DNA from: Pseudomonadales bacterium
GTDB taxonomy: Bacteria > Patescibacteriota > Microgenomatia > UBA1400 > PJMF01
Direction: 5' to 3'
Length of the DNA: 64,000 bases
Assembly: GCA_020632235.1 (NCBI GenBank)
Contig: JACKFY010000004.1
Span: 4,811-68,810, forward strand
The notes under the pieces are model-generated. The model was given only the letters and a program-made list of their open reading frames with translations. It made no database searches and was not told where the DNA came from. The position numbers were made by a program, and so were the translations under genes. Shown here in pieces: positions 3,968 to 64,000 of this stretch; within the stretch, counting starts at the first letter, position 1; each line of letters opens with the position of its first letter.

Positions 3968-5008
3968 CTATGTTTTATCTACGTTCAGATTGTCATGTTG
4001 CACATGTTGGGACAGCACAAAGGTGCTGTAGAGAGCTCGGATAATTATATAGATAGGTATACACAGCAAAGCTCCCACCACACCACCCAGTGTGAGACCA
4101 ATGAGGATGATGATGATAGAAGCTAACGGGTTTACGTTTGCATTATCACTCATAATTTTAGGAACCAAAATATTATTTTCTACTTGTTGAATGATGATCA
4201 CCCCCACCAACACCGCGATGGCCAGTACCGGCCCACCACTAACGTAGGCAACAACCACACTTGGCACAGCAGCCAACGTAGGTCCAAGATTGGGAAGTAT
4301 CTCAAGTGCTCCAGCCACCAATGCAAGTGCAAGAGCGTACGGTACGCCCAAAAGACTGAGTACAATAAAGTTGGCAATGCCTATGACAAACATCAAAATC
4401 AGCTGACCGCGCACCCATCCGCCCAGTTGCTCTTCAATGTCATCTATTAAGCCTCGAATGGTAACTATAGTATCTACATTTCTCGTAATCCAGTAAAACT
4501 TCATGTAGAGTTTTTGCCTCCCCAGCATCATGTACATAGACAGCACTATCAGCGTAAAAAACATCAAGATGCTGCTAAACGTCGAGTTCACAATAGAGAA
4601 TAAGGTGGCAGCAGAACCAGAAAGTCGGTCGGCAATATTGCTGATATCGGTGAGCGTAAAGCTATAGTTTTCAAAGTGAAGATCAAGCCCTGGCACCTCT
4701 ACTTCTCTGATCAATCCATATCCCTGAGAAATGAGTGGTGGTAGCAGTACGATAGCCAGCAAGATACAGACAATGATGATCACTACGTAGGTGGTAAAAA
4801 TACTCACGAGTGGAGAGAGTCGCACCTTGTTTTGCAAAAAAAGTACGACGGGTCGCAACGCTACCATCAAGATAAACGAAAGTAAGACCAAGGCCACAAT
4901 GGCGCGAATGCTGTATAAAAAATAACCACCCAAAAGTATGCCTAACACCAGTAAGATACTTTCTGGAGCTATCACTACTGCATGTTTTGGCTTGAGTTTT
5001 TCAAGCAT
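3968..5008 (-). CDS. AI-2E family transporter (PerM/UPF0118-like permease)
   Basis: A 346-aa protein with the eight-TM topology and sequence pattern typical of AI-2E/YdiK-family membrane proteins. Confidence 0.75.
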   Translation of the reverse strand: MLEKLKPKHAVVIAPESILLVLGILLGGYFLYSIRAIVALVLLSFILMVALRPVVLFLQNKVRLSPLVSIFTTYVVIIIVCILLAIVLLPPLISQGYGLIREVEVPGLDLHFENYSFTLTDISNIADRLSGSAATLFSIVNSTFSSILMFFTLIVLSMYMMLGRQKLYMKFYWITRNVDTIVTIRGLIDDIEEQLGGWVRGQLILMFVIGIANFIVLSLLGVPYALALALVAGALEILPNLGPTLAAVPSVVVAYVSGGPVLAIAVLVGVIIIQQVENNILVPKIMSDNANVNPLASIIIILIGLTLGGVVGALLCIPIYIIIRALYSTFVLSQHVQHDNLNVDKT

Positions 5009-14475: not shown

Positions 14476-14635
14476 TATTCCCCCCGATTTTAATCGGCAT
14501 GACGGGTTGTGCTACGCTCGAAATGACGGAACAGAGAAGAATGGTCGAAGTGACAGATGGGTTTAATCTTGACTTTTTTTGTTATAGGATGTATACTGAA
14601 GTGTTACTCGGCATATCGAACTAGATCAAAGGATA

Positions 14636-15361: not shown

Positions 15362-15559
15362 TTGACTGTCATGCTAGCTGGTTGTCACTCTGGAGCGAAG
15401 CGATAGAGTCTACAGTCACAAGCCAAGCGGTTGTCAATCTGAACTTGTTTCAGATTCAAAAAAAAACCCTACATCGTAATTCCAAATGACAATGGCGAAC
15501 CAGCTGAACCGCTCAATGTTGACTTTGAAACAGAAGGTGCTGATGCCACGAGCAGTGCT

Positions 15560-17655: not shown

Positions 17656-17711
17656 CCCCTCACCTTGCGGTCTGGCCGACTGGACCAGAAAGCAATGGTG
17701 AGGGGTTTTTG
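17656..17711 (+). terminator. Rho-independent terminator after rplT
   Basis: CCCCTCACC ... GGTGAGGGG stem with a structured loop, then TTTTT. Confidence 0.7.
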
Positions 17712-32368: not shown

Positions 32369-32436
32369 TACTTCCTTCCCCTTGTGAGGGAGCCCCGATG
32401 TGAAATCGGGACGGGAACTCAAGTGAAACATGAGAG

Positions 32437-32514
32437 GGGTTTCTGTCATTTCGACTGGAACAAAGTGGAATGGAGAAATCCCGCTCAGATCTCTCCACTT
32501 ACGGTCGAGATGAC
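32437..32514. repeat. Intergenic long-hairpin repeat element R, copy 1
   Basis: GTCATTTCGAC pairs with GTCGAGATGAC (11 bp) around a roughly 50-nt loop. It is homologous to 44194-44268. Confidence 0.5.
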
Positions 32515-32543
32515 ATACTAGGTTTCAGTTGACGTCACACAAC

Positions 32544-35820: not shown

Positions 35821-37896
35821 ATGTTGAATACTCTGCGTACCAGATGGCAGTACATGAGCATGCGAAAGCGAATAAAGGCTCTCATTTCTGGCTTTTTTTT
35901 GCTCATACTCATGGTAACCGCTGTCTCGGCGTTAATTGTAGTGCAGCAAAATCAAGAAAACAGGCAAAAAGCATCAGAAATTGATGGCACTACCTGCAGC
36001 ATTGCTTCGTACGCTCAAACCGGCACAAACCTTGTTCCTACTACTATCTTTGATCCAAGTGAACCTATTATTTTTGCTATTACAGTAGAGCAGACTAGAG
36101 GTCCACTACCTATTATTGTAGACGACTATCTCCACGATTTCTTGGCTGCAGGCTACACCATTTCACCCCCACTCTACAGCCCAGAATGTACAGCGCCAGA
36201 GTTTCCCCACACCGATCCCTTTGTCTATCGCTGTAACTGGCTCACGGCCATTCCAGGTGGCAGCATGACCACCTACCTACAGCTCGCTCCACCTATATCG
36301 CCCAGCCCCTCCCTGCCTGGTCAAACCCTTACCAATCAAGTAGAGCTCTTGCCCTGCGAAACCTGTGGTGGACTCGGCAGGCCTGCTAGCTGGACACCCA
36401 CTGTGTCCGTCAATGCAGCAGGGATCAGCGACCCTTCTTGCAGTACCACCATCACCATAACAGAAGAGCCCGTGACGCTGGGTGGTCAAGCCTACTGCAT
36501 AGACCAAGCAACCGGCAACAAACAGTACCAACAGGGAGTACAGATAGGGGAGAGAGCTAGCGAGCACTGGAGCGTGACCACCGATGCAAACGGCAGGTGG
36601 AGCGTGACACGACCAGCAGCTGAAATAAACCCTGACAACTATGCCATTCGTCCGTTTGGTAACAGTGACTTTCCCTACGCTTCTGACGTTATGACAACTG
36701 GTGTAAGCGGTATTTCTTGCCCAGATAGTAATATTGAGGGGCCAGAGCTCACACAAAACAATACTGCGGTTGTTGAGCGGGCTGCTGGCAGCTGCGGCAG
36801 AGCGCTGCCACTCGATACCCTAGATTTCAATTTGGGCTACTGCCCTGCCAATACTACGCCTGGAGTGCAGTGTGACTCTGTCTGCACGCCACCCAACACT
36901 CCAGCAAGTAGTGAAGAAATAGGTGCGCCAATTACTGATGAGTGTGTCCAAGCACTGGGGTCAGAGTATGCCTGCATGCCTGTGGGCACCGAGTACCGCT
37001 GCAGACTCATTGCCGATCCAACGAACGCCAGCTGCAACATCGCACCCACCCCCACCTACTACGACGGCTGGTGGCAGAGTAGAGGAGGACTTGTCTACAG
37101 CGCCCTCGCACTGACCAACGAAGTTCACCAAGACGCCAACCCACTCTTTGGTCTGCTAGCAAGATCATACATAGGTAGCGTCAATCCGAACTCCAGTGGT
37201 ATCGCCCGTGTAGGCAGCACTATTGTCACTTTTGGCAACGCCCAGCCCACCCAGCGAGTACGATCTCAACAAATGGCAAGTGGTAGCGATGCTCTCTCTC
37301 CGCCTAGTCTCACCACCACTATTTCTACCATACTTGCTAACAGTAGCGCTGCTCGTAGCCTTCCTAGCACCCTCACCCAAAAGCCCACAGACTGCACACC
37401 ACTTGATGGTGCGACTGTCTGCACAGCAACAGGCCTCCTGACCATTGATGGCGAACGCTGGATCGTAAACCCAGGGGAAAAGCTTATTATCGTTGTCGGG
37501 GGTGATGTACGCTTTGCGGGCAGTAGAAAGCAAGCTATCTGGCTACAAGACGGTGGCTTTTTTGCCCTGATTGCCAGCGGCACCATCACCTTTGGCGGTG
37601 AGCTGGGCAGCACCGACCACCAGCCGGGTCAGCCAGACGTCCCCCAAACAGACAACTACACTGCTGGTGGCGTGTACCTGGCGGGCCACAACATCGTAAT
37701 AGAGCAAACCAGCCAAGACACCGACAAACAGTTCGTAGGAAACGGCGTCTTTGCCGCAGGCGGGAACATACAGCTGCAGCGCTCATTAGCCTTTGATGGC
37801 AACACCCACCCTGCTAGTCTATTTGTCTACAACCCCCAGCTGTTACTCAATGCTCCTGATTTCTTCTTGGAGGGTTCGGTGGAGTGGCAGCCGTAG
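35821..37896 (+). CDS. Large Cys-rich surface protein (691 aa) with an N-terminal TM anchor and a conserved C-terminal beta-solenoid-like domain shared with the 1070-aa paralog
   Basis: N-terminal TM at RKRIKALISGFFLLILMVTAV. The C-terminal roughly 330 aa begins DGWWQSRGGL and ends NAPDFFLEGSVEW, aligning with the tail of 40188..43391. Confidence 0.65.
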   Translation: MLNTLRTRWQYMSMRKRIKALISGFFLLILMVTAVSALIVVQQNQENRQKASEIDGTTCSIASYAQTGTNLVPTTIFDPSEPIIFAITVEQTRGPLPIIVDDYLHDFLAAGYTISPPLYSPECTAPEFPHTDPFVYRCNWLTAIPGGSMTTYLQLAPPISPSPSLPGQTLTNQVELLPCETCGGLGRPASWTPTVSVNAAGISDPSCSTTITITEEPVTLGGQAYCIDQATGNKQYQQGVQIGERASEHWSVTTDANGRWSVTRPAAEINPDNYAIRPFGNSDFPYASDVMTTGVSGISCPDSNIEGPELTQNNTAVVERAAGSCGRALPLDTLDFNLGYCPANTTPGVQCDSVCTPPNTPASSEEIGAPITDECVQALGSEYACMPVGTEYRCRLIADPTNASCNIAPTPTYYDGWWQSRGGLVYSALALTNEVHQDANPLFGLLARSYIGSVNPNSSGIARVGSTIVTFGNAQPTQRVRSQQMASGSDALSPPSLTTTISTILANSSAARSLPSTLTQKPTDCTPLDGATVCTATGLLTIDGERWIVNPGEKLIIVVGGDVRFAGSRKQAIWLQDGGFFALIASGTITFGGELGSTDHQPGQPDVPQTDNYTAGGVYLAGHNIVIEQTSQDTDKQFVGNGVFAAGGNIQLQRSLAFDGNTHPASLFVYNPQLLLNAPDFFLEGSVEWQP

Positions 37897-37992
37897 GGCT
37901 ATTCCCCTTGTAAGGGGAGACGTCCCGACTTTAGTCGGGGCAGATGGGATGCAAGCTTCCTGTAATGCTCGTAATGTACACTGCGCCCTTGT

Positions 37993-38061
37993 GGGGACGC
38001 CACTGGCTGTGGAACCGTGTCTACGGAACTTGGTTTGCGAGTTCGATTCTCGTCGTCTCCA
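37993..38061 (+). other. tRNA-Ala-like fragment (acceptor stem with G3.U70 and canonical T-arm, but no cloverleaf in the 5' half)
   Basis: GGGGACG...GCGAG-TTCGATT-CTCGT-CGTCTCC-A. A perfect GGAGACG partner also lies at 37919-37925. Confidence 0.35.
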
Positions 38062-38159
38062 CAGGAAAAACTGTTTACTACTTGAAATACAGAGAAAGCA
38101 GAGTAAAATGAATGTCAATTCGTAGACGCGGTTATTTCATACCAATGGAAACCAATCAA

Positions 38160-38190
38160 CCCCTCACCAGCTGGTGAGGGGTTTTGTTTG
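38160..38190 (+). terminator. Rho-independent terminator
   Basis: CCCCTCACC-AGCT-GGTGAGGGG-TTTTGTTTG. Confidence 0.55.
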
Positions 38191-38233
38191 TATCCCCTCT
38201 TTTCAAGAGGGGTGTCCGTCAATTGACGGAAGG

Positions 38234-38347
38234 GGTGTTTAGCATCTCCTCTTTTCAAGAGGGGCATCCTTCACCTGAAAGGTGAGAGGGTGAGGTGTTT
38301 AGCACTCCCTTTCGTAAGGGGACAGGGACATCCCGACTTTAGTCGGG
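38234..38347 (+). repeat. Multi-hairpin structured element E, copy 1 (candidate ncRNA or repeat)
   Basis: Hairpins CCTCTTTTCAAGAGG, CCTTCACC-TGAAA-GGTGAG, CCCTT-TCGT-AAGGG and CCCGACTTTAGTCGGG, plus two GGTGTTTAGCA spacers. It is homologous to 44013-44131 with compensatory stem changes. Confidence 0.5.
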
Positions 38348-38448
38348 GGAGAGGGGTTTCCCTATTGCATTCCAACGTCTCATAGTATATTATGAGAGAT
38401 AGTGTGTTGTAGTAGCGGTATAAACAAACAACACACAGAAAACAAACC

Positions 38449-39730: not shown

Positions 39731-40198
39731 ATGTGGCGTTATATAAAAATAGGTGTAGTTTTTCTCGTTATTTTTTGTGTTGGAATAGGTGGGGCGTATG
39801 TAAGTTTTTCTCAGATTATTCCTAATAAGAACTATGGTAAAAATCAAATCGCCGGCGATAAAATAGTTAAAGACCAAGAACCAACCAATCAAAATGGTCA
39901 ATATATTGCGAGAGGAAAACTAATAAGCTTTATTCCTGAACTAATTATAGTTTCAATTAATAACCAAAAATACTTTTTAAATGTTACTTCTAAAACAAAG
40001 TTTTTTATTTCTCATGTAGATCATAGTGATGGACTAAGTGGTGATCTCATAGAGAACAAAGATATAAGCATGCGTGATTTTGAAAATAAAATTTTAAATA
40101 CTCAACCTTTATTTGTATCGATTGTGTATAAAGAAAATGATACAAATGATGTGAATCAAAAAGAAGCAATTTTTATTAATGCTGCATATGATAAGTAA
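39731..40198 (+). CDS. Hypothetical small membrane-anchored protein (AT-rich gene)
   Basis: MWRYIKIGVVFLVIFCVGIGGAYV TM anchor. AT content is markedly higher than in neighbouring genes. Confidence 0.35.
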   Translation: MWRYIKIGVVFLVIFCVGIGGAYVSFSQIIPNKNYGKNQIAGDKIVKDQEPTNQNGQYIARGKLISFIPELIIVSINNQKYFLNVTSKTKFFISHVDHSDGLSGDLIENKDISMRDFENKILNTQPLFVSIVYKENDTNDVNQKEAIFINAAYDK

Positions 40199-43100
40199 GT
40201 CATTAAAAAAAATATTTACCTCTATATCAATTTTTATTGTTTTAACAATTACTCCAAGTCCTGTGCACGCAGAGTGTTACTTAGTATATGATGACTTTCA
40301 TCCCGGCGCTCCTGCAAACTGTCATGCTTATGCAGGGTGTGTAGACAGCTCGCCTCCAGGCTCAAGTAAAAATGAATTTATTTGCGAACTAGATGGCAAT
40401 GGTAATTGGGGATATAGGCATTATCACTACAGTGGTTACGGGAGTTTTTGCTCCTGCGGTGGAAGTGGAGGTGGCATCGTCCACTCTCACTTCAACGCCA
40501 CAATCACCGATCAAAACGGGCAGTACTACACGGTAGACAGTTGTAACGGCGGGGGCAATGGAGCTAACATAAGTGTGAGTGGCTCTGATGCATCTATTGA
40601 GGCAAAATGCGACACCACCCAGGCTGGCATGCCAGAGGGTCACTTTTCAGGAAAGGCAGAAGAAAACACTGATGCTACCTTTACCATGTCACAATTCCCC
40701 ACAGGCTTCATGTGCACTGGCTGGGAAGTGGTGCAAGGCGTGAACGGTACAAACCCTGGTGCATGGGTTGCTGGCCAAAGTACGACAAATTGTCAAACAA
40801 GCGCTGTCAATGTAGGTGATAACGACCACGACATAGAGGTGCACTTCCAAATTGAACCCATCCCCACACCCACACTCTCCCTCTCATGCAACAGCAACGA
40901 CCAAGTGGTGGTCAACTGGAGTAATGTAGGCACGCCGTTCTACCATATTCGTCTAGATACAGACCCTTCTTCTTGGAATGGAGACTGTAGCAACCCCAAC
41001 AACAGAGACATCTGCAACAACCAATACTACGACACTAACTATACCATCGGCAGTACTGAAAATAGAAACTATCACTTTTGGGTGCATGGCGCCACCGATA
41101 CTACCTTTGGGTCAGCAGGGACGATAGAGTTCAACTACCAGGACGTCTACGAGCAACAATGCATAGAGTACACCTCGTTTGATGCCATAATAGTGGGTGG
41201 AGACTTGCGCCATGGCCAAATCCCCCCCAGCAGCAGCTGCAGTACGGCGCAGAACTCGGGCATAGGTGACATCCAGTTTTATGCACCCTATAGCAGCCAA
41301 GAGTGGCTGTGTGGGGGTGACGGTAAGGTCTACGCCCGCCTTACTACCGAATCAAACAGAAACATCAGCGCCCAGACCCAACCCCCCAACGGGTATGTTT
41401 GTGATGGGTGGGAGATGCTTGATGCAAGCAATGGGTATAATCAAATTGCCTTTGGGGGACCAGGAGACTGCGGGCCTGAAAACTACACCATGCAGCACGG
41501 GGTGAATAGATTGCTCGTACTAAAAGTGAGGCAAAAAGCAGAAATAAACACTATTCTGACAGACAACACCTATCGCTATGGCTTCATTCCTCCTGGCGCA
41601 GCCTGCAATACCAATCTCAATGTGCAAGGAGGAAGTATATTTTATAGTGGTACTGGAAATCCGATGGGCCAGTGGATGTGTGGTGGTGATGGTCTGTTAT
41701 TTAGTAAAATCACCACAGATGTAAATGAAAATATATCTATCCAAGCCACCCCGCCGCCCAACTTTTCTTGTAATGGCTGGCGCTACACCGATAATAACGG
41801 CACTCAATCAGGACCTGGATGTGGACCATCTACTCTTTCCCCTGCGGCTAATCTTAACAGCACACTGGTACTAGATGTGCAGCCAAACCCCAGCAACACC
41901 GGCATCTGTGGCGATGGCACCATCCAGTCACCCAACAGCAACGGCGTGTATGAAGACTGCGATGACGGCAACACGACTGATTGGGATAGCTGTCATAGTG
42001 ACTGTACGCTGGAAACCTACGCTATCGGCTCTGTGGTTGATGACGTGGGAAAGTACTATGGCCCCTCATCACTCTCGTGTGCAAACGTATCTAACCCAAA
42101 CTATGGGGGAGAGGCTACTTTTACAACATCTATGGACTCCGTGCAGTGGAGTTGTAAAGCAGATGGGAAAATATTTGTCGATATGTATAGTCATCCCTAC
42201 ACCGATGCTGAGAGCATCACTGTGCAGAACGTACCCCCAGGCATTCAGTGTAGCACTGATGTAGACTGGTTTGTGCTAGGGGATACTACAAACTACTCTG
42301 GCACAACATGTAGTGCTACCAACCTTACAGGGAACAAACAATTTGACCTCCAGTTTAATATCGCCACAGACCCCACAGCGCCTCAACAGTGTAATCAATC
42401 ATGTAGTATTGACGATGACTGCGCGACAGGGCTATCGTGCGTAGGTGGAATGTGCACAGGGAACTCTTGCCCCACCTTTACCAATCCACCCACCCCAACA
42501 CCTACTCCTCCTACCGGCCCGGTTATAGACGGCTGGTGGCAGGTGAGGGGAGGGCTTCTTTTGAGCAATGATAATTTTACAAATCCAATTGCGTCTTCAG
42601 TCTTGCGATTTTTAATGATAGCCACAGACCCATCCAACGAACTAACTGCTGGCATCCCCATTGCTCCAAACGGTTTTGATATCGACGTCAATAATGAACC
42701 CACCCAGAGAGAAAAACCATACCAAGCAGCTACCACTGGCGCCAACCCTCACGCAGAGATTTCAAAAGCCAAAAACGCACTGCTCAAAAAAGCAGAGGAG
42801 CTCGTAGGCTCTAACGCCCACTCTACCCCCATGTCTGAAAAGCCCTCCTGCACCCCAATTCCGGGCACAACGTCTGGTGCAAGCGAGGGTGGTGAAACAG
42901 AGGGGGCAGCCGCCACTGAGACAAGTATTTGTTATGTTGACGGAGACCTCACTATCTCCAATCCAACCACGTGGAGCATTGACGCAGACGAAAACCTCAT
43001 CATCGTAGCAAAAGGCGACATTGTATTTAGTGGCACAGCGCCCCTGAACACTATTACACCTGGTGGGTTCTTGGGCTTTATAGCAGGTGGCACCATTACG

Positions 43101-43391
43101 TTTGAGGAAGATATGGGCAATACCACCTCTCAACAACCCAACACACTCACCCCCACGCCCACCGTACACGCTGTTTTTCTGGCAGACTCCATTACTATAG
43201 ATGGCGAACCTACAGGAAACGGACAGTTTGTGGGCAAAGGTGTGTTTGCAGCTGTGAACGACATTATGCTGCAGCGCAAACTTTCTGCCGGTGGTGATGA
43301 GTACCCTGCCAGCTACTTTATCCACGACTCACTCTTGGTACAAAACGCCCCAGATTTTTTCAAAAGTACTCGCCTGGAATGGGGAAAATAA
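40188..43391 (+). CDS. Giant secreted Cys-rich repeat protein (about 1067 aa) with a Sec signal peptide, internal roughly 120-aa Cys modules, a Myxococcus-type CxxCDDGN repeat, a Pro/Thr linker and the shared C-terminal domain
   Basis: Signal peptide MISKSLKKIFTSISIFIVLTITPSPVHA-E. Repeats W.CGGDGK..(R/K)(I/L)TT(E/D).N.NIS.Q..PP....C.GW occur at least three times. CGDGTIQSPNSNGVYEDCDDGNTTDWDSCHSDCT. The C-terminus DGWWQVRGGL...NAPDFF...EW aligns with 35821..37896. Confidence 0.7.
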   Translation: MISKSLKKIFTSISIFIVLTITPSPVHAECYLVYDDFHPGAPANCHAYAGCVDSSPPGSSKNEFICELDGNGNWGYRHYHYSGYGSFCSCGGSGGGIVHSHFNATITDQNGQYYTVDSCNGGGNGANISVSGSDASIEAKCDTTQAGMPEGHFSGKAEENTDATFTMSQFPTGFMCTGWEVVQGVNGTNPGAWVAGQSTTNCQTSAVNVGDNDHDIEVHFQIEPIPTPTLSLSCNSNDQVVVNWSNVGTPFYHIRLDTDPSSWNGDCSNPNNRDICNNQYYDTNYTIGSTENRNYHFWVHGATDTTFGSAGTIEFNYQDVYEQQCIEYTSFDAIIVGGDLRHGQIPPSSSCSTAQNSGIGDIQFYAPYSSQEWLCGGDGKVYARLTTESNRNISAQTQPPNGYVCDGWEMLDASNGYNQIAFGGPGDCGPENYTMQHGVNRLLVLKVRQKAEINTILTDNTYRYGFIPPGAACNTNLNVQGGSIFYSGTGNPMGQWMCGGDGLLFSKITTDVNENISIQATPPPNFSCNGWRYTDNNGTQSGPGCGPSTLSPAANLNSTLVLDVQPNPSNTGICGDGTIQSPNSNGVYEDCDDGNTTDWDSCHSDCTLETYAIGSVVDDVGKYYGPSSLSCANVSNPNYGGEATFTTSMDSVQWSCKADGKIFVDMYSHPYTDAESITVQNVPPGIQCSTDVDWFVLGDTTNYSGTTCSATNLTGNKQFDLQFNIATDPTAPQQCNQSCSIDDDCATGLSCVGGMCTGNSCPTFTNPPTPTPTPPTGPVIDGWWQVRGGLLLSNDNFTNPIASSVLRFLMIATDPSNELTAGIPIAPNGFDIDVNNEPTQREKPYQAATTGANPHAEISKAKNALLKKAEELVGSNAHSTPMSEKPSCTPIPGTTSGASEGGETEGAAATETSICYVDGDLTISNPTTWSIDADENLIIVAKGDIVFSGTAPLNTITPGGFLGFIAGGTITFEEDMGNTTSQQPNTLTPTPTVHAVFLADSITIDGEPTGNGQFVGKGVFAAVNDIMLQRKLSAGGDEYPASYFIHDSLLVQNAPDFFKSTRLEWGK

Positions 43392-43946: not shown

Positions 43947-44012
43947 CCCCCTCACCCAGACTTCTCCACTTGCGGTCGAAGTGACAGACTAGTGTTTAGT
44001 CAAAACAAAAAG

Positions 44013-44131
44013 GTTTAGCATCTCGTCTTTGCAAGAGGAGCACCCTTCACCTTTCAGGTGAAAGGGCGAGGTGCTTAGCTCTTCCCTTCATAAGGGAACC
44101 CCCGATGAAACATCGGGGGACAGGGACATCA
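44013..44131 (+). repeat. Multi-hairpin structured element E, copy 2
   Basis: Same order of hairpins and GTTTAGC spacers as 38234-38347, with covarying stems (CGTCTTTGCAAGAGG, CCTTCACC-TTTC-AGGTGAAAGG, CCCTT-CAT-AAGGG, CCCGATGAAACATCGGG) and a conserved ACAGGGACATC 3' end. Confidence 0.5.
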
Positions 44132-44193
44132 AGCGTGAGCGTGATAGATAGGTTTAAACATTCCCCTTGTAAGGGGAAAACTCGAGCGAAAAG

Positions 44194-44268
44194 GGTTTCT
44201 GTCATTTAGATCCACCAGCTGACGGAGAGAAATCACACCCAGATTTCTCGACTACGCTCGAAATGACG
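44194..44268. repeat. Intergenic long-hairpin repeat element R, copy 2
   Basis: GGGTTTCTGTCATTTAGATC ... CAGATTTCTCGACTACGCTCGAAATGAC is homologous to 32437-32514. Confidence 0.5.
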
Positions 44269-44317
44269 GGGAGGAATGGTCGGTATGACAGGTGGGATTA
44301 GTGGAGAGCATTGACTT

Positions 44318-44357
44318 GCAGTCGTCACTCTGGAGTAAAACGATAGAGTCTGACTGC
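44318..44357. repeat. Conserved stem-loop motif, copy B (GCAGTC-ACTCT-GGAGTAAAACGAT-AGAGT-GACTGC)
   Basis: It shares the 27-nt core CACTCTGGANNNAANCGATAGAGTCT with 15381-15417 and 55343-55382. Confidence 0.55.
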
Positions 44358-47699: not shown

Positions 47700-47704
47700 A
47701 AAAA

Positions 47705-47753
47705 CCCCTCACCTTGCTTTCTGGTCCAGTCGGCCAGACCACAAGGTGAGGGG
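47705..47753 (-). terminator. Rho-independent terminator/attenuator after the pilin gene. It is a near-identical inverted copy of the rplT terminator.
   Basis: The minus-strand transcript reads CCCCTCACCTTGTGGTCTGGCCGACTGGACCAGAAAGCAAGGTGAGGGG-TTTTTTT. It differs from 17656-17705 by two nucleotides. Confidence 0.7.
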
Positions 47754-55342: not shown

Positions 55343-55382
55343 GCAGTCTTCACTCTGGACCGAAACGATAGAGTCTGACTGC
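55343..55382. repeat. Conserved stem-loop motif, copy C, between gyrB and ppa
   Basis: GCAGTC-TTC-ACTCT-GGACCGAAACGAT-AGAGT-CT-GACTGC. The flanks are identical to copy B. Confidence 0.55.
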
Positions 55383-55923: not shown

Positions 55924-58671
55924 ATGACCGATACACAACCAGAAACACCAGACATTCAAAACCAAGTAGTTGAAGAGACTGAAAGCGTGGTGGGGCAGAT
56001 AGAAGAAACCAAGTACGGCAAGCTCAAACACGTCTCGATCAAGCAAGAGATGGAAAAATCATACCTTGACTACGCGATGAGCGTGATTGTCTCGCGCGCA
56101 CTACCCGATGTTCGTGATGGTTTAAAGCCAGTTCATCGACGCATTTTGTACTCGATGTATAAAAGTGGCATTCACCACACCAGCTCGTACAAAAAATCGG
56201 CTCGTATTGTAGGTGATGTCTTGGGTAAGTACCATCCTCATGGTGACGCGCCTGTATACGGGGCGCTGGTGCGCCTAGCTCAAGACTTTAACATGCGTTA
56301 CCTACTCGTGGATGGCCAGGGCAACTTTGGCTCGATTGATGGCGATAGTCCTGCTGCTATGCGCTATACCGAGGCCAGGCTAGCCAAGATCACTGCCGAA
56401 CTTTTGATAGATATTGACAAAGAAACAGTCCCATTCACTGACAACTTTGACGGCTCGGTCCAAGAGCCAACGGTGTTACCAGCCAAGCTGCCCAACCTAC
56501 TACTCATGGGTTCGGAGGGTATCGCAGTCGGCATGGCTACCAAAATCCCACCCCACAACTTGCATGAAGTCTGTGATGCCATCATTGCCATGCTTGATGC
56601 GGGCGGTGCTATAAAAGAAGAGAAGGGACTCAAGCAAGAGACAAAAACACCAACCAAAGAAGAAGTAGAAACTCAGACAAGTAACGCTACAGGAGCGGTA
56701 CTCTCCAAGGAAATTCAGGCTCAAAACAAAACAATAGATGCGCTGCTTGCCGCCAACCCCCAGACGTTGGCAGGTACATTTGAAACCGACAGCACGATTG
56801 ATGACATCATGACACATGTGCAAGGCCCAGACTTCCCCACAGGGGGCATCATGTACGACTTTAACGCTATCAAAGAAGGGTATCGTACGGGCAAAGGCAG
56901 AGTGGTTATCCGGGCGAAAGCAAGCATTGAAGAAACCAAAAAAGGCGGCTTTCAAATTATCGTGACCGAGTTGCCATTCCAGGTCAACAAAGCTAAGTTA
57001 TTGATGAAAATCGCCGATCTAGTCAAAAACAAAAAAATCCAAGGCATTCGTGATCTAAACGACGACTCAGATAGAAATGGTATGCAGATCACCATTGACC
57101 TCAAGCGTGATGCTCGACCAAAGGTAGTGCTCAACAAACTGTTTCGCTACTCAGAGCTGCAAACATCATTCCCCATGAACATGGTGGCGCTGCGCAGTGA
57201 CGGCACACCACAGCTGATGAACATCAGGCACATCTTGATGGAGTACATCGCTCACAGACAAGCTATCGTGGTGCGTCGTTCACAGTATGAGTTGCGATCT
57301 GCCCGCGACCGAGCACATATCTTGGAAGGGCTCTTGATTGCTCTGGGCAACTTGGACGAGGTGATACAAACCATTCGTGAGTCAGCCGACACTGATGCTG
57401 CCAAAACTGCTCTGATGTCCAAATTTGGCCTCTCTGAGGTACAGTCTCTGGCCATTCTTGAGATGCAACTCAAGCGCCTGGCTGCCCTCGAGCGCAAAAA
57501 AATAGAAGACGAGTACAAAGAGATCCAAACTACCATCAAGTCGCTCATCGCTCTTCTGCAAAACCCTGGGAAGATTCTCTCGGTGATTGGTGACGAGGTG
57601 GCGGGCCTGAAAGAAACTTATGGTGATGAGCGTCGTACCAAGCTCGTCAAGGGCAAAATCGGCGAGTTTAGTGAAGAAGATCTCATCCCCAACGAGCCAG
57701 CGGTGATCACGCTCACCGAGACCGGCTACATCAAGCGCAGCAAACCAAATGCGTTCCGTGTACAGTCGCGCGGTGGTAAAGGCTCAAAAGGCGTGCAGAT
57801 GAAAGACGAAGATGTGGTCAAGGCACTCCTGACTGCCCAAACGCACGACACGCTTTTAATGTTTACCAACCAAGGTCGCGTCTTTAGCATGAAAGCCCAC
57901 GAAATACCCGACGTCAAACGCCAGGCCAAAGGCACAGCTATTGTCAATCTTTTGAGCCTCAAACAAGACGAAACCATTCAGTCACTCCTCATCCTAGACG
58001 AAACAGATGACAAAGACAGCTACATCAGCCTTGCTACCAAACACGGCTTAGTCAAAAAGACTGCAGTTAAGCTGTTTAATAACATTCGCCAAAACGGCAT
58101 TATAGCTATCACTCTCAATGAAGGTGATGAAGTTGTATGGGGCAAACTTTCATCTGGAGAAGACGATATTATGCTCATTACACATGCTGGCAAATCTATA
58201 CGATTTTCCGAAACAGAAGTGAAGTCATCTAACAGAGACACAAAGGGTGTTAAAGGTATTACTCTCAAGAGAGGTGATTATGTAATAGGCGTAGAAGCAC
58301 TGAGCGCTCAAGAAAGCTCGTCCTCAAAATACCAGCTCCTCGTAATTACAGAAAAAGGCCTAGGAAAGCGCACTGCACTTGACCAATACCCTGTACAAAA
58401 AAGATCTGGTGTTGGTGTGAAAGTGTCTACAATCACAAAAAAAACTGGCAATGTTGCATCTGCCAAGCTTGTCTCAAGCACAAAGCACAAAGAAATTGTT
58501 ATTAGTAGTAGAGAAGGGCAAACCATCAAATTGCCACTTACTAAAAAATCTATACCTATTCTCGGTAGAGCCACGCAAGGAGTCATCTTGATGAGACTTA
58601 AAGCTTCTGATGCTGTTTCTGCCGTAGCACTGACGTACAAAAACACTGATGCTGAAAGCGATGATACGTAA
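55924..58671 (+). CDS. gyrA: DNA gyrase subunit A (with a roughly 60-aa insertion in the N-terminal domain)
   Basis: [36 protein letters not shown] and the catalytic Tyr region [11 protein letters not shown]-terminal beta-pinwheel repeats. Confidence 0.9.
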
Positions 58672-59557
58672 AAAACACCCCTCTTCTGAGAGAATAGGAG
58701 AGGCATCAATTTTAATTCAGGCAGCACTGTGGTCATTGTTTCCCATCATTACTGTTCTCTCATATAGTGGGCTGCAACCCATCATATCTTTAGCATGGAC
58801 AACGTTATTTTCATGTTTTTTCTTTTTTTTAGTAATAATTGCTAAACAATCGTGGACAGCGATACGCTCAAAGAAAGTACTGCTGCCACTACTATTCATT
58901 GCACTTTTCAACGGAATAGGATTTTATTTTTTTTACTTTTTAGGATTAACACTCACTTCTCCTGGTAATGCCGCTATTGTAGCGACATTTGAAGTATTCT
59001 TTAGCTTTTTGTTGTTTAATGTACTGCAAAAAGAAGCACTAACTCCATCACATGTTTTAGGAATGATATGTATGGTAATAAGTGCCATAATAATCTTTTT
59101 TCCTACAGATTTATCCCTCCAAAAAGGCGACTTTTTTATCTTACTAGCTGCTGCTGTTGCGCCAATGGGCAATCATTTTCAAAAACAAGTGAGGACTCAT
59201 CTAAAAACTGAGCAAATTCTAGCTTTTAGAACTATAATCTCAGTACCCTTCTTGTTTTTAATGGCTATAATGCTAGGTGAGCAAGTAGTGCTTCCCACGG
59301 GCAACACACTTTTACTTGTGATATTTAGTGGCGTAGTCTTGTTTGGTATCTCAAAAATGCTATGGATAGAAGGTATTTTTAGAATTAGTGTCACCAAGGC
59401 AATCTCTCTTAGCAGTGTTGCTCCAGTACTCACACTCGTTTTTGCCTACCTAATACTCGGAGAAACTCCCACCAAAGTACAGCTGGTAGCAGTACCTCTT
59501 GCCGTAGCTGGAGTACTACTGCTGACACACAATAGAGCTTTAAAGAATAAATACTAA
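58661..59557 (+). CDS. EamA/DMT-superfamily transporter
   Basis: Ten TM segments in two EamA-like halves. Confidence 0.65.
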
Positions 59558-59566
59558 TTGTATAGA

Positions 59567-59821
59567 CTAATCAAAGAGCGCTTTTGAAATTTTTAAAAAA
59601 TGAGAAGTTTTACTATCTTCAGTATTAAGCTTGCTCCTGAGATCTCTTAATCTTTTATCAAGTTCGTGTTCAAAACGATACATTTCACTTTGACACTGTG
59701 CATCCACTGGCCTAGTGCTATGAAAAAATTCACCTCTTATGTAGCTAAAGAACTCACGACACACTACAAGCTTGGGGTAGACTTCCGGAAGTTCACTCCT
59801 CCCAGATTCAGCGCGAGACAA
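59567..59821 (-). CDS. Hypothetical protein (AT-rich accessory block)
   Basis: ORF only. Confidence 0.25.
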   Translation of the reverse strand: MSRAESGRSELPEVYPKLVVCREFFSYIRGEFFHSTRPVDAQCQSEMYRFEHELDKRLRDLRSKLNTEDSKTSHFLKISKALFD

Positions 59822-60040
59822 TTCTTCCTCTATAAGTTCTTGTAGTGATTTTTACAATGCACAGTAATCCATAGAGCTCTTTTCACTTTTTACTACAGTT
59901 AGTGTACCACTTCAATGCTCTAGTAATATTGACAAGATACTGTTGAATCTTCATAGTAGAGAAGTATAAATGAAACAACAGACTCCCTACCTCGTGATGA
60001 TGATATAGAAACAAGAGGAATACAAGATATTCACGAAACT

Positions 60041-60517
60041 ATGCCACCAGTAACTGAAGAGGGAAGTCAAGCAGCAATTGATCTAGTGCAAAGAGCATTG
60101 GACGGCGGAGGCGATCTTCAGTTGCACGCATCATTGGATGGTGAAACCAGACTTGCAAATGGAGAAGACGGAAGTGTAATACTGTTTCTTCCACAAGAGG
60201 TACTTGCTGCTCTTAAAAGAGCTGACGCCAGTGTCAAAATTATAGCTAATGAGCTTCCAGAGAATAGCACTAGCGACATTCCTCAACCAGAAAATCCAAG
60301 TAGTGCTAGAGATCCAATTGTAGATCACTCAAAAGAATTTGCTGAGCTGCGAGAACAACCAAGACCAGGCTGTCTGATTGCAGTATTTAACATCTTTAGA
60401 ACGATGGGCAGACTTAAACTCGCAGAGTGGAAAAATAAAAGAGGATCTAGCAAACATGCGCAGCAAGAAAAGGAAAAGCAAGAAAAGAAAAACTCATACA
60501 GCTTGACGAAATATTAG
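60041..60517 (+). CDS. Hypothetical protein (AT-rich accessory block)
   Basis: ORF only. Confidence 0.3.
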   Translation: MPPVTEEGSQAAIDLVQRALDGGGDLQLHASLDGETRLANGEDGSVILFLPQEVLAALKRADASVKIIANELPENSTSDIPQPENPSSARDPIVDHSKEFAELREQPRPGCLIAVFNIFRTMGRLKLAEWKNKRGSSKHAQQEKEKQEKKNSYSLTKY

Positions 60518-60552
60518 ACAGAAATAAAGACAATACAGAGCTGAGAAATAGA

Positions 60553-62865
60553 ATGCTAGAATCACTAGCAGAATATAATATTCAGCCTATCTACATTGAT
60601 AAACTATTAAACTTTATTGTCACACTAAAAGCTAAAACACAATCTATTTTAGATAGAGAGCTACACAAGAAGCTGCATAAACATATGCAAGAGTCTGGTC
60701 TGGACTCTCAAGACTTGCCACTTGATTTTGAAGATTTTGACCAAGTGATTACACCAATAACACAGGTGCTTGTGGAATTGTTCCCTGACTGGATACAACA
60801 AGAGAACCTTGACCAGCCTACTACCGCGCAGCAGACACAAAAAGATAAAATTAAAGAAAAGCAAGATGCTTTAGAAAGAATTACTGAACCCTATCGTTAT
60901 GACCCAAAGGCTGATGCACGAGCAGAAGCAAGCCGAAATGAAGTCGTGCGCAACCTCAAACAAGGACTATCTGAATATTTAGAAACAGTTGGAGTACACA
61001 GCCAGCTGAAGTTAGAACTACTTTCAATTATTATCTACTTAATGGGTGAGCAGAGAACAATAAACCCACACACGCTATCTGAAGTTCTTAGAGAAAGAAT
61101 TAAAAAATACCAAACAAATGATACACACACTAGTAATAAAGGAGAGCCACCCTCAGCAGACATACAACAACATAGAAGTAGTGAGGATGTCTCAAAGCTG
61201 GTAGGCGCAATCTTGCATTTTGTTAGAAATGCGGCTCCGGGATGGATAGATAACTTGAGCCCTCAACCTGAACAAAGCACTTCTGGCTTAGAAAGTTATA
61301 TTAATCTGCTTGTAGATGAAGGGAAGCTCAAACCATATGAGAGAGAGTTTGCAAAAGACCCGCGTGTACTTGATAGGTTGATGAGTATTTTTGATGGCAC
61401 CACTAACCGCATGAGAGCTCTAAAATCAGCTGCAAAACACGCAGAGTTCTTTGGAAACGACAAGCTAAGATTTATGAGGCTAGTAGCGCTCTTACTCCCA
61501 ATATTACTGCTGTTAGGAGTAGTTACTGATAGAGATAATCAAGTCGATTTTGGAACAATAGGTACCAAAACTGAAGCATTAATAGGACCTCTTCCCCCAG
61601 ATGAAAACACCTCTCCTGAGGAACAACCAAAAACAACTCTACCCACACAAGGAGAAAATAAAACCAATAACGTCCAAGAGCTTACAACTCCCACTGACAC
61701 AGCACCTAATGTAGGATCACAAGAAGCATATGCACTAGCACCTGGAGAAGATGTTATGGGAGTGCTTACCCGTGCTGTAAATGAAGGAAACTCAAGTGAG
61801 AATGCTGGTCTTACTAGCACTGCAGAAGCTGCTGAGTCACTCTCTGAGCAAGAAAAAGATCAATTCATAAACCTACTAGCCCAAATAGATGCTATACGCA
61901 ATAACTGGCCGGTTGATAGAGCAACTGAGCGTCCCCCAGGGTATAAAATCAGCCTTCTCACTGATCACTTACAGTTACTTGCCCGAGCGATCAAGGTGCG
62001 AGGTCAAAATGAGGCGGCAAATGAGCTCATAAATCAAATAATGAGCCCTGACACAACAGAAGATCAACTCAGCGGGATACTGGCATCACTGCAAACACTT
62101 TTTGAAGTAATTGAAGATACAGAAACACACTCCCAGCAAAGTAGTGGAGAATCAACAGCAGAAGTCATGCAGACAGTAGAAAAGCTGCAAGCTATAAGAA
62201 TTGACGTCGACGATACTATCTCTACTAACATTAATGACAATCAGTTTATGATTCTCGTTCAAAAAGGTGCTGCTTCTCACTATGCGGTTGGGGGCAATAC
62301 GGTGATTGTATTGCCAAGTGGTAAATCAATTCCCTTCAGTGATTTCCTGGAAGGCTATAATGGAGTAAATATGACCAATGTTACAATCACTCCTAGCTCT
62401 GATACAGTATCTTCCAATAACCGTACTTTCAAGATTGCTTCAGAAATAGTTATTCCCCAATTTCCCAGCTTGGAAACACTCAATCAATTTCCCAACCTAC
62501 CCCAACTTGTAGAGAAGTTGGAGGAAAAATATGGTTTTGGTAAAATGAGCAACATTATCAAAATAGCTGAGGCGCAAATAGACAGCCACAAACTTAATGA
62601 TAATGAGGCCTCATTTTTATTTCAAATGCTCTTATATTTAAATGAGTCACTAGGAGGAAGAAACGCTAATGATATAGTTTCACACGCAGTTGACATTGCA
62701 AACTTAACAAATGGCGAGACAGATAAAATTAATGACCTACTCAGAAGTGTTTCTAGTTATGAAGAACAGTATGGTGATATGGAATCTCAAGTGTTGACTG
62801 CACTAATAACATTAAAACGCAATCTAAATAATTTAGGGTGGACCGAAGGGGACTCGAACCCCTGA
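60553..62865 (+). CDS. Large hypothetical protein (770 aa) whose 3' end runs 27 nt into the tRNA-Ala gene
   Basis: Long ORF with low GC, one internal hydrophobic segment (LVALLLPILLLLGVV) and no recognised domain. The stop at 62863-62865 lies inside the tRNA at 62839-62912. Confidence 0.45.
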   Translation: MLESLAEYNIQPIYIDKLLNFIVTLKAKTQSILDRELHKKLHKHMQESGLDSQDLPLDFEDFDQVITPITQVLVELFPDWIQQENLDQPTTAQQTQKDKIKEKQDALERITEPYRYDPKADARAEASRNEVVRNLKQGLSEYLETVGVHSQLKLELLSIIIYLMGEQRTINPHTLSEVLRERIKKYQTNDTHTSNKGEPPSADIQQHRSSEDVSKLVGAILHFVRNAAPGWIDNLSPQPEQSTSGLESYINLLVDEGKLKPYEREFAKDPRVLDRLMSIFDGTTNRMRALKSAAKHAEFFGNDKLRFMRLVALLLPILLLLGVVTDRDNQVDFGTIGTKTEALIGPLPPDENTSPEEQPKTTLPTQGENKTNNVQELTTPTDTAPNVGSQEAYALAPGEDVMGVLTRAVNEGNSSENAGLTSTAEAAESLSEQEKDQFINLLAQIDAIRNNWPVDRATERPPGYKISLLTDHLQLLARAIKVRGQNEAANELINQIMSPDTTEDQLSGILASLQTLFEVIEDTETHSQQSSGESTAEVMQTVEKLQAIRIDVDDTISTNINDNQFMILVQKGAASHYAVGGNTVIVLPSGKSIPFSDFLEGYNGVNMTNVTITPSSDTVSSNNRTFKIASEIVIPQFPSLETLNQFPNLPQLVEKLEEKYGFGKMSNIIKIAEAQIDSHKLNDNEASFLFQMLLYLNESLGGRNANDIVSHAVDIANLTNGETDKINDLLRSVSSYEEQYGDMESQVLTALITLKRNLNNLGWTEGDSNP

Positions 62866-62912
62866 CCTCCTGCATGCCATGCAGGCGCTCTAGCCAACTG
62901 AGCTACCGGCCC
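62839..62912 (-). tRNA. tRNA-Ala (anticodon GGC)
   Basis: Reverse-complement cloverleaf. Acceptor GGGCCGG/TCGGTCC with a G3.U70 pair (the alanine identity element), anticodon loop ATGGCAT, T-loop TTCGAGT. Confidence 0.9.
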
Positions 62913-63415
62913 ATTTTAGGTATAGTATACATCAGAATGTAATAAGCTGCGCAGCATTGAGTGAGAGGCAACTCACTGGGCAGACTACAAGATATTTTAT
63001 GTATCTTGTATAGAAATGCTAATGCAGTTTTTGAACACTGATAAACAAAAATCATACAATATAGTAATTTTCACAAAGTTATTTTAGTATGCATACGCAT
63101 TCTTTACATATTAGCATCATCTGTGATACACTGCCAACCTTGCCATAGTGCAAATAAGGCTGGTACAAAAACACTTTTTTTAAGCCTAAATATATATCTG
63201 TATTTCAATAAAGTGCAAAGTGTCTCGTAGTATGAGTATCTATATACTTATACATCCTCTTTTAAGTAAAAGCCTTAGTATGTTGTTGGGGTAGAGCAGA
63301 GAAGAGCAACATAATTTTAATTGATATACAGGTAATTATTGGTATAATAGTAAAATTAGCAGAGTAGTAATTAGACTGCTAAAATCCTATAGTAATTTAA
63401 GATTTTAGAGAGTCA

Positions 63416-64000
63416 TCATGACTTTGAGTGATACGTTTGGTGCACCTTTTTTAATTGAGGCTTTGTAATATGGGTGTAAATTTGAGTAGTAGCTATGTTT
63501 TTGTGACCCAGCATTTCTTGCACATCCCTCAGGCCCGCTCCATTACTCAGTAAGTCGGTAGCAAAGCTATGCCTGAGACCATGGGGGCTAATCTTGATGG
63601 GTAAGTGTGCTTTTCTTGAATACTTATCTACAATTCTTTGCACACTTCTTGCACTGAGCCTCATGCTTTCTCCTGAATCAGTTATTCCTGGCTTCTTACC
63701 ACTAAAGCGAATAAAAACTGGCTGCCAATTATCATCTCTTGCATCAAGCCACTTCTGCAGCCACTTGCAGGCTCTATCACTCAAAAAAACTACACGCTGT
63801 CGTCTACCTTTACCAATAACTCCGAACTCTTTTGTATTAAAATTTAGCTGGTCTCTATTAAGGCTTACCAACTCACTCACTCTCAGACCAGTAGAGAAGA
63901 AGACTTCTAAAATTGCCTTGTCTCTAAGGCCTATCGGCGTACTAAGACTTGGTTGGCTCAGTAGCAGCTCTACTTTTTCAAGGGGAAGATACTGCATGTG
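63416..64000 (-). CDS. Tyrosine recombinase (XerC/XerD/integrase family). Only the C-terminal catalytic domain is in the window (N-terminus beyond 64000).
   Basis: HGLRHSFAT and LGHKNIATTQIYTH match the R..HxxR..Y catalytic tetrad blocks. Confidence 0.8.
   Translation of the reverse strand, partial: HMQYLPLEKVELLLSQPSLSTPIGLRDKAILEVFFSTGLRVSELVSLNRDQLNFNTKEFGVIGKGRRQRVVFLSDRACKWLQKWLDARDDNWQPVFIRFSGKKPGITDSGESMRLSARSVQRIVDKYSRKAHLPIKISPHGLRHSFATDLLSNGAGLRDVQEMLGHKNIATTQIYTHITKPQLKKVHQTYHSKS

Follow-up and report, generated by a model that had tools for sequence, protein, structure and literature searches.

Two intergenic spacers of a 64-kb stretch of contig JACKFY010000004.1, the whole of which we call the window, each contain a copy of a string of small hairpins that a first-pass annotation had described as a candidate structured RNA. 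Looking for repeats throughout the window and in about 1 kb of its flank (L021), we arrive at another reading, to which we assign a probability of roughly 55%: the copies are one arrangement, met twice, in a family of short GC-clamped hairpin repeats, and this family forms a lineage-specific mosaic of terminator-like hairpins, resembling repetitive extragenic palindromic (REP) sequences and bacterial interspersed mosaic elements (BIME), or BOX elements, and probably transcribed in the 3' regions of genes. The repeat itself is genuine. Rather than a dedicated RNA gene, its copies more probably represent terminator-like structures at 3' ends.

The repeat and its modules

The two copies lie on the + strand and align as a direct, ungapped repeat, 38237-38323 against 44013-44099, in which 72 of 87 positions (83%) are identical; the longest identical run among the 15 differences is 12 nucleotides, and the comparison of the two cores by BLAST within the window has E=1.7e-18. 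Copy 1 extends over 38234..38333 and scores 122 bits with R1, a covariance model built from both copies; copy 2 extends over 44011..44130. The first-pass annotation had announced a common order of parts ending in a shared tail, and both copies indeed read: a box GTTTAGCATCTC, hairpin 1, hairpin 2, a box GAGGTG(T/C)TTAGC, hairpin 3, and the tail ACAGGGACATC. In copy 1 these are box 1 GGTGTTTAGCATCTC at 38234-38248, hairpin 1 at 38246-38264, hairpin 2 at 38267-38290, box 2 GAGGTGTTTAGCAC at 38292-38305 and hairpin 3 at 38306-38322, directly before the tail. In copy 2, hairpin 1 (44022-44040) contains a G.G mismatch, the loop of hairpin 2 (44043-44066) is flipped, and hairpin 3 (44082-44098) is separated from the tail (44120-44130) by a perfect hairpin of 20 nucleotides, CCCCCGATGAAACATCGGGGG, inserted at 44099-44119. 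This last hairpin had not been told apart in the earlier parts list for copy 2, which was otherwise in the right order. Both spacers match contigs of the deposited metagenome-assembled genome (MAG) GCA_020429115.1 base for base (contig L001 for copy 2).

As the first-pass annotation had it, copy 1 lies between genes for a 691-aa protein and a metzincin-like protein, and copy 2 in the spacer of two converging genes, after an N_methyl pseudopilin. One of these spacers measures 412 nucleotides and the other 552.

The three-hairpin element is not self-contained: its parts recur singly, and in other orders, in at least three other spacers. The recurrence begins next to copy 1, which is a tandem array of two-hairpin units of about 52-60 nucleotides, with recurrences at 38187, 38239 and 38299, so packed that nine hairpins fit within the 190 nucleotides of 38158-38348. 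The extra hairpins reported ahead of copy 1, CCCCTCTTTTCAAGAGGGG (38194-38212) and CCGTCAATTGACGG (38215-38230), are present. Together, CCCCTCTTTTCAAGAGGGG and TCCGTCAATTGACGGA (38215-38230) form a partial tandem unit on the + strand, at 38194..38230, which is 80% identical to the start of copy 1 over 40 nucleotides at a spacing of 52 nucleotides, and which R1 matches over model positions 15-59 with E=0.0017.

Three of the modules can be followed from site to site. A first pair, hpA (TCCCCTTGTAAGGGGA, 37903-37918) and hpB (CCCGACTTTAGTCGGG, 37924-37939), occupies 37901..37948 on the + strand, 6 nucleotides past the stop of the 691-aa gene. The segment 37903-37948 is 82% identical (E=1.9e-6) to 38306-38356, that is, to hairpin 3 and the hpB that end copy 1. 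This second hpB with its flanks, GACATCCCGACTTTAGTCGGGGGAGAGGGG (38327..38356, +), directly adjoins copy 1 and is 90% identical to 37919-37948. An exact second hpA, ATTCCCCTTGTAAGGGGA (44160..44178, 100%), lies in the spacer of copy 2 next to a neighbour that differs from the one at 37901. A third spacer (32375..32443, +), after a KH-domain gene, has an hpA variant at 32377-32391 and an hpB variant at 32393-32410, followed by ACGGGAAC...GAGAGGGGTTTC, which runs into a long hairpin. In a fourth (14479..14565, +), after the trigger-factor gene, an hpB-like hairpin CCCCCCGATTTTAATCGG precedes fragments of the same long-hairpin family; the within-window comparison of 44252-44300 with 14512-14565 gives E=3.7e-6. 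Overall, hpA has two sites that are 100% identical (37903 and 44161) and a variant at 32377; hpB (GACrTCCCGACTTTAGTCGGGG) has sites at 37924 and 38332 and variants at 32393, 44099 and 14481; and a third module, hpC (CCTCTTTTCAAGAGGGG), appears in the hairpins at 38194 and 38246 (sequence at 38196 and 38249) and, as a variant, in copy 2 at 44022. The neighbours of all three change from site to site. Even the linker ACAGGGACATC stands ahead of hpB in copy 1 and behind an hpB-like hairpin in copy 2, and the two copies differ from each other at the level of whole modules, by the hairpin inserted at 44099-44119 and the flipped loop of hairpin 2.

The window thus shows tandem hairpins with no covarying homologs, which agrees with what the first-pass annotation had itself named as refuting its reading. 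The four spacers share one feature of position: the arrays start 0-8 nucleotides past the stop codons of + strand genes, those of the 691-aa protein, the pseudopilin, the KH-domain protein and the trigger factor.

Pairing and folding of the two copies

The first-pass annotation rested on hairpin stems that would differ by paired substitutions, read as the hallmark of selection on RNA structure. In order to count them, the three local hairpins were imposed as a structure on the alignment of the two copies. Among the 25 stem pairs, 20 are invariant, three are altered in a single partner (U.G to U-A or C-G), one is compensatory, and one is broken. When the labels telling which sequence has which 3' partner are shuffled, 259 of 500 trials do as well as the observed pairing; two sequences therefore hold no statistical covariation. 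The claimed covariation is not supported, nor is the reading as a structured RNA gene.

In hairpin 1, a change from C to G in copy 2 breaks a C-G pair and yields the G.G mismatch, and the other change is one-sided (U.G to U-A). Hairpin 3 has the sole true double change, from C-G to U-A, and one change from U.G to C-G. The stems of hairpin 2 are identical, and what differs is the loop of three nucleotides: GAA in copy 1 becomes TTC in copy 2, its exact reverse complement, and the two versions, CACCTGAAAGGTG (38270-38292) and CACCTTTCAGGTG (44041-44062), match better in reverse orientation (22/23). This difference is most simply explained by one flip or template switch at the centre of a palindrome, at the level of DNA, rather than by three point substitutions.

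The copies nevertheless differ at 6 of 50 stem positions versus 9 of 37 unpaired ones, a frequency twice as high for the latter, and five of the six changes in stems keep the pairing: the hairpins are therefore maintained, either by selection or by palindrome-correcting repair. The same counts can be invoked in favour of a discrete structured RNA, small or cis-acting, whose two paralogous copies would be tied to the type IV pilus and adhesin cluster, an explanation that we consider distinctly unlikely. One possible fold is a three-way junction closed by the pairing of box 1 (AGCAUCUC) with box 2 (GAGGUGYU). The junction is predicted for both copies, as the centroid of copy 2 and the minimum-free-energy fold of copy 1, and under it copy 2 gains pairs, or has them reinforced, by the changes at alignment columns 18, 60 and 67. 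However, it fits as well as the three local hairpins do, being 98% paired, so that two structural models are equally good, and the copies allow many other competing helices, because they consist of runs of pyrimidines and of purines that complement each other. The flipped loop and the inserted hairpin, being palindrome events at the level of DNA, also count against such an RNA, as do the parts found independently elsewhere in the window and the downstream contexts, which differ: a + strand gene for one copy, the end of a converging gene for the other.

The copies have a strong predicted tendency to form hairpins: compared to shuffled sequences, z-scores are -6.3 for copy 1 and -4.9 for copy 2. 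Folded as RNA, the region of copy 1 reaches -85.8 kcal/mol on the + strand versus -60.1 on the - strand, and copy 2 reaches -70.8 versus -65.7. Most of the mini-hairpins are perfect palindromes, equally stable on both strands, and it is the asymmetric ones that favour the + strand through G.U pairs; a role of the + strand at the RNA level is therefore plausible. This bias agrees with transcription coming from the + strand genes upstream, without proving it. Of the candidate RNA first proposed, strong hairpin formation and the + strand bias remain, while the discrete covarying molecule of about 115 nucleotides does not.

Relatives and possible origins

The checks suggested along with the first-pass annotation, a comparison with Rfam and covariance-model searches, bring no support to a structured RNA. 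At gathering thresholds, Rfam recognizes three tRNAs in the whole window and nothing else; with permissive settings, the best match in the two spacers has 21 bits for a threshold of 50, and all have E>0.5, so that no family is matched at either level. ARAGORN reports neither tRNA nor transfer-messenger RNA (tmRNA) in the spacers. Run over the window with filters off, R1 recovers both copies, their palindromic echoes on the reverse strand and the partial unit at 38194-38230, and no third copy. Over 15 fetched loci, its sole match with E<0.01 is L003 (25.6 bits, E=4e-6), a locus pre-selected by the search pattern, and no further covarying copy appears. That pattern, a degenerate 20-base description of hairpin 1, has three matches in species-representative genomes, all apparently due to chance: L003 lies inside the coding sequence of mnmA, and L004 and L005 in sequence that seems to belong to open reading frames (ORFs). 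It has no match in the JGI metagenomes or in the viral collection IMG/VR, where the hpB pattern has none either, and the spacer of copy 2 has no BLAST match in phage and plasmid collections.

The locus L003 deserves a remark of its own. Positions 4022-4138 of CAUTUR010000009.1 form a hairpin-rich stretch of about 110 nucleotides, including CCCCTCTTTTCAAGAGG, in frame inside mnmA. This gene appears to have an extra insertion of about 34 amino acids, and it continues in a second frame some 20 nucleotides on. The situation is reminiscent of in-gene palindromic elements, always keeping in mind how the locus was selected.

The only two other assemblies in which proteins of the window were found, GCA_020429115.1 and Logan SRR12358676, are 99.9-100% identical and offer no informative variation, and no record was found for a protein at the window's right edge. 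The 1070-aa protein encoded ahead of the pseudopilin gives no syntenic loci when used as query (a search of 5.8 billion proteins has no match at E<=1e-10 among the candidates retrieved); PilC was used instead. Its best named relatives are from Pacebacteria, Woesebacteria and Patescibacteria. Together with the gene content, which includes DUF5660 and a pilus cluster, they indicate that the host is a bacterium of the Candidate Phyla Radiation (CPR); the label that one source gives to the MAG, "Pseudomonadales bacterium", is probably wrong.

The closest relatives, L006 and L007, whose PilC is 70% identical, are syntenic with the window through the pilus cluster. In both, the two converging pseudopilins have orthologs that abut or overlap, and no spacer stands at the position of copy 2; the spacer of copy 2 is thus, by this comparison, a lineage-specific insertion. 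The genes that flank copy 1 cannot be compared as directly: no orthologs of the 691-aa, 409-aa and 167-aa proteins of the window are detectable in L006 and L007, and the comparison therefore relies on gene order and position alone. Upstream of the large protein, the gene block of these relatives has junctions of 26-51 nucleotides, far from the 412 and 552 nucleotides of the window, and the spacer of copy 1 is probably a lineage-specific insertion as well. Neither locus contains a similar sequence or a hairpin cluster, which counts against a discrete RNA as well. One could think of the direct repeats that border a genomic island, or att sites; this candidate was rejected, the relatives having orthologs of the pseudopilin and of the 1070-aa type in the same place and the repeats being only 83% identical.

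The hairpins could belong to non-autonomous mobile DNA, such as REP doublets forming hairpins (REPIN), miniature inverted-repeat transposable elements (MITE) or other palindrome-associated elements, recognized as single-stranded DNA by a transposase acting in trans from a gene located elsewhere in the genome, any effect on RNA being incidental. We regard this as unlikely, even if several observations go in its direction. Relative to the relatives, the spacers are insertions; the 20-nucleotide hairpin of copy 2 is inserted with an apparent duplication of AC (44097-44121); several repeat families are stacked in a single spacer of 412 nucleotides; the small hairpins are mostly perfect palindromes of equal stability on both strands; and the adjacent long-hairpin family has a mini-hairpin of the GCGAAGC type and is found in many unrelated CPR contigs, which implies horizontal spread. 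On the other hand, Pfam scans of ORFs of the 64-kb window show no transposase gene, whether a REP-associated tyrosine transposase (RAYT) or one of the IS200/IS605 type, and the 87-nucleotide unit is bordered neither by terminal inverted repeats nor by consistent target-site duplications. The GTAG and CGTC tags of RAYT-type REPs are absent or ill-fitting, and the phage and plasmid collections show no match.

As a third possibility, a segmental duplication could have carried the element along passively with the 3' flank of a gene, leaving it as a relic. The 691-aa (35821-37896) and 1070-aa (40179-43391) proteins are indeed paralogous over their C-terminal domain of about 300 amino acids (34% identity, E=4e-32), and each has one copy downstream of it, with the same orientation and a similar offset (5.4-5.8 kb). 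We hold this for very improbable. The coding DNA of the paralogs is about 60% identical over 319 nucleotides, versus 83% for the element, a gap that is also in keeping with a structured RNA. The pseudopilin gene stands between the 1070-aa gene and copy 2, whereas a search for a pseudopilin pseudogene remnant in the spacer of copy 1 gave no convincing signal (best tblastn E=0.027 over 30 aa). Finally, the modules are also found behind unrelated genes, those of the KH-domain protein and the trigger factor.

The nature of the host brings up one more system. Arrays of tandem interspaced guide RNA (TIGR), whose stem-loop guides are bound by Nop-domain Tas proteins, are common in Patescibacteria (Faure et al. 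2025, PMC12045711; bioRxiv 10.64898/2026.09.09.750476). As in the window, they consist of tandem stems with variable palindromes, and the period of about 52-60 nucleotides found here is near the tigRNA unit of about 54. We give this explanation practically no credit. A TIGRFinder-style scan of both strands of the whole window, requiring a box C CNA, a 9-nucleotide spacer and a box D YG, twice within 15 nucleotides and flanked by stems of at least 5 bp, yields 0 candidates; box C/D motifs and spacer intervals are thus missing, and loops of 3-6 nucleotides are too small for two spacers of 8-12. The Pfam-scanned ORFs of the window include no Nop or Tas protein, a few ORFs without matches lying more than 20 kb away, and the arrays are dispersed behind housekeeping genes, not grouped at a tas locus. 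Motif, loop size and absent Tas protein led us to reject it.

Terminator-like arrays and their neighbourhood

The array hairpins share with intrinsic terminators a GC-rich stem placed right behind stop codons. A canonical intrinsic terminator, AACCCCTCACC-AGCT-GGTGAGGGGTT with its T-run, is present at 38158..38192 (+), between the 691-aa gene and copy 1, and it is the only hairpin with a U-tract in the two spacers: the other match of the terminator scan, 38232-38248, consists of box 1 and the pyrimidine arm of hairpin 1 and does not qualify, and the spacer of copy 2 has no terminator-like site. Elsewhere in the window, a terminator cassette of 55 nucleotides, CCCCTCACC-(37-nt inner hairpin)-GGTGAGGGG with T-run, occurs at 17656-17710 (+) and 47700-47753 (-). 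These cassettes are identical at 53 of 55 positions in opposite orientations, each one being co-oriented with its upstream gene, rplT for one and a pilin-like gene for the other. Closed by a loop of 4 nucleotides, the stem CCCCTCACC/GGTGAGGGG is the terminator of 38158; hairpin 2 has a weak similarity to this stem. Judged by these sequences, the terminators of this genome look like members of a repeat family. The array hairpins differ in having no U-tract, and in being strung together, up to nine in 190 nucleotides.

Pneumococcal BOX elements (boxA-(boxB)n-boxC) and mycobacterial interspersed repetitive units (MIRU) offer one term of comparison: both are modular intergenic repeats with a module of about 45-60 nucleotides reiterated in tandem in varying numbers, and stable stem-loops are predicted for the composite. 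Their sequences are unrelated to those of the window, where modules are strings of mini-hairpins whose order is not fixed.

The REP and BIME sequences of Enterobacteria and Pseudomonas offer another. Like the hairpins of the window, they are short (15-40 nucleotides), GC-rich, imperfect palindromes, strictly extragenic, mostly 3' of genes, between convergent or co-directional ones, and clustered in mosaic arrays with linker motifs; all the modules described here are confined to the four spacers. There are differences as well. There is no sequence similarity, and several unrelated hairpin sequences are present instead of the usual one or two REP types. The arrays have no GTAG or CGTC head: one hpB is preceded by CGTC (37921-37924) and the other by CATC, and where REPs of the CGTC family have stems of 8-9 bp beginning with A-T, loops of 4-5 nucleotides and a CCA tail, the modules of the window have stems of 5-7 bp starting with C-G and no CCA tail. 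None of the 38 ORFs of the window scanned with Pfam is a RAYT, a Y1 transposase. REP families number more than 100 copies per genome; here, 2-5 copies of each module are counted within 64 kb and a flank of about 1 kb. The host, lastly, belongs to Patescibacteria, a group for which no REP-like repeats were found reported in the literature. Strict membership in the REP family is not shown. In other bacteria, REP-type repeats are terminator or stabiliser elements of 3' untranslated regions (UTRs), between unidirectional and convergent genes (PMC3733652; bioRxiv 10.64898/2026.03.23.713779), and a REP or BIME is plausibly a transcribed stabiliser or partial terminator in the 3' UTR (PMC3733652; PMC2817692; bioRxiv 10.64898/2026.03.23.713779).

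In the mosaic that we favour, hairpins of 15-25 nucleotides and two-hairpin units of about 52-60 nucleotides would have been duplicated in tandem, inserted, flipped and recombined into new orders, and the result would be comparable to the BIMEs of E. coli or the BOX elements of pneumococci. We infer that transcription of the upstream + strand genes continues into the arrays, which would make up the 3' part of the transcripts. Stacked hairpins would then act generically, by impeding 3'->5' exonucleases, by slowing or stopping read-through between converging or adjacent genes, or by both, and not through the defined tertiary structure of a specific folded RNA. The arrays may also be nearly neutral passengers.

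Several facts weigh against a mosaic of terminator-like repeats. Each module is seen only 2-5 times, within 64 kb of genome, and Pfam scans of the window ORFs reveal no transposase or RAYT gene to account for their spread. Without U-tracts, the array hairpins are not predicted to terminate transcription intrinsically. The 87-nucleotide core is 83% conserved, as compared to about 60% in the adjacent paralogous coding DNA, which could reflect selection on a specific element. Copy 1, moreover, lies downstream of the good terminator at 38158-38192, so that it may belong to the metzincin-like gene, as part of its 5' leader, and not to a 3' UTR.

A promoter-like site (TTGAAA, 16 nucleotides, TAAAAT) is found at 38082-38109, followed by an ORF of 21 codons (38112-38177) that overlaps this terminator. 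It is the sole promoter-like site, and the terminator intervenes between it and the element. From its sequence, 38082-38192 looks like a leader or attenuator arrangement ahead of the hairpin array and the metzincin-like gene.

The long hairpins that adjoin the arrays look more interesting than the original finding. Their motif, CACTCTGGAnnnAAnCGATAGAGTCT, occurs in the window at 15386, 44326 and 55351, and has 12 exact-pattern matches in metagenome contigs of 33-52% GC (L009-L020). In 11 of these 12, the motif is the 5' arm of an imperfect hairpin of 72-128 nucleotides, GUCACUCUGGAG-CGAAG-CGAUAGAGUCU...AGAUUCUAUCG-(variable mini-hairpin)-CUCCAGAAUGAC, the 3' arm being absent from L018. Each locus has one copy, co-oriented with, and directly after, one of an assortment of housekeeping genes. 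A conserved G.U pair and a conserved C.A mismatch belong to this hairpin, which is not in Rfam and was not found in the literature searched. In the window, a diverged full-length member lies in the spacer of copy 2 (44199..44269, +; R2 scores of 49, 48.6 and 28.3 bits across members); other full-length members are at 32443-32516 and 15382-15492, and short forms or fragments at 44318-44357, 55343-55382, 43957-44000 and 14512-14565. In the diverged members at 32443-32516 and 44199-44269, the helices are kept through compensatory changes.

The genes of the window are housekeeping genes and a type IV pilus cluster. Upstream of copy 1, the gene is where the first-pass annotation placed its "giant adhesin", without Pfam support for that identity: neither the 691-aa nor the 1070-aa protein has a domain above threshold. 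The metzincin-like protein has the motif HEIGHIFGLEH, and its Pfam matches are all sub-threshold. Ahead of copy 1, positions 37992-38061 resemble the 3' fragment of a tRNA, with a T-arm GCGAGTTCGATTCTCGT and an acceptor strand CGTCTCCA that can pair with GGGGACG, 60 nucleotides upstream, into an acceptor stem of the G3.U70 type. As a tRNA or tmRNA, this fragment was rejected: it is not recognized by ARAGORN, and its only match in Rfam, to tRNA-Sec, is weak (E=0.67). An integration scar is conceivable, and so is a tRNA-like minihelix. At the far end of the window, 58000-64000 is a block of low GC content (0.37-0.42) with ORFs that have no Pfam matches; a phage-type integrase (63416-63997, -) lies about 500 nucleotides from a tRNA-Ala(GGC) at 62836-62913, and the block is probably an integrated element.

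A bolder conjecture, which we find highly doubtful, is that the arrays of small hairpins and the long hairpin together make up an undescribed class of Patescibacteria elements, spreading horizontally, located 3' of genes, orientation-specific and active as RNA, in which the 87-nucleotide unit would be a functional RNA module, for example a processing or protection signal for pilus and adhesin transcripts.

The case calls for caution with hairpin-rich look-alikes: a few differences compatible with pairing are no evidence for a structured RNA gene if its parts are also found apart from each other. The genomes of Patescibacteria are very small and tightly packed, and spacers of 400-550 nucleotides filled with hairpins are unexpected there; our searches of the literature, on hairpin repeats in this group and on the motif sequences, found nothing relevant, and no report of interspersed palindromic repeats in Patescibacteria. 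If such arrays are present genome-wide, they would provide a handle on how the 3' ends of transcripts are made or protected, and on how repeats spread, in reduced genomes.

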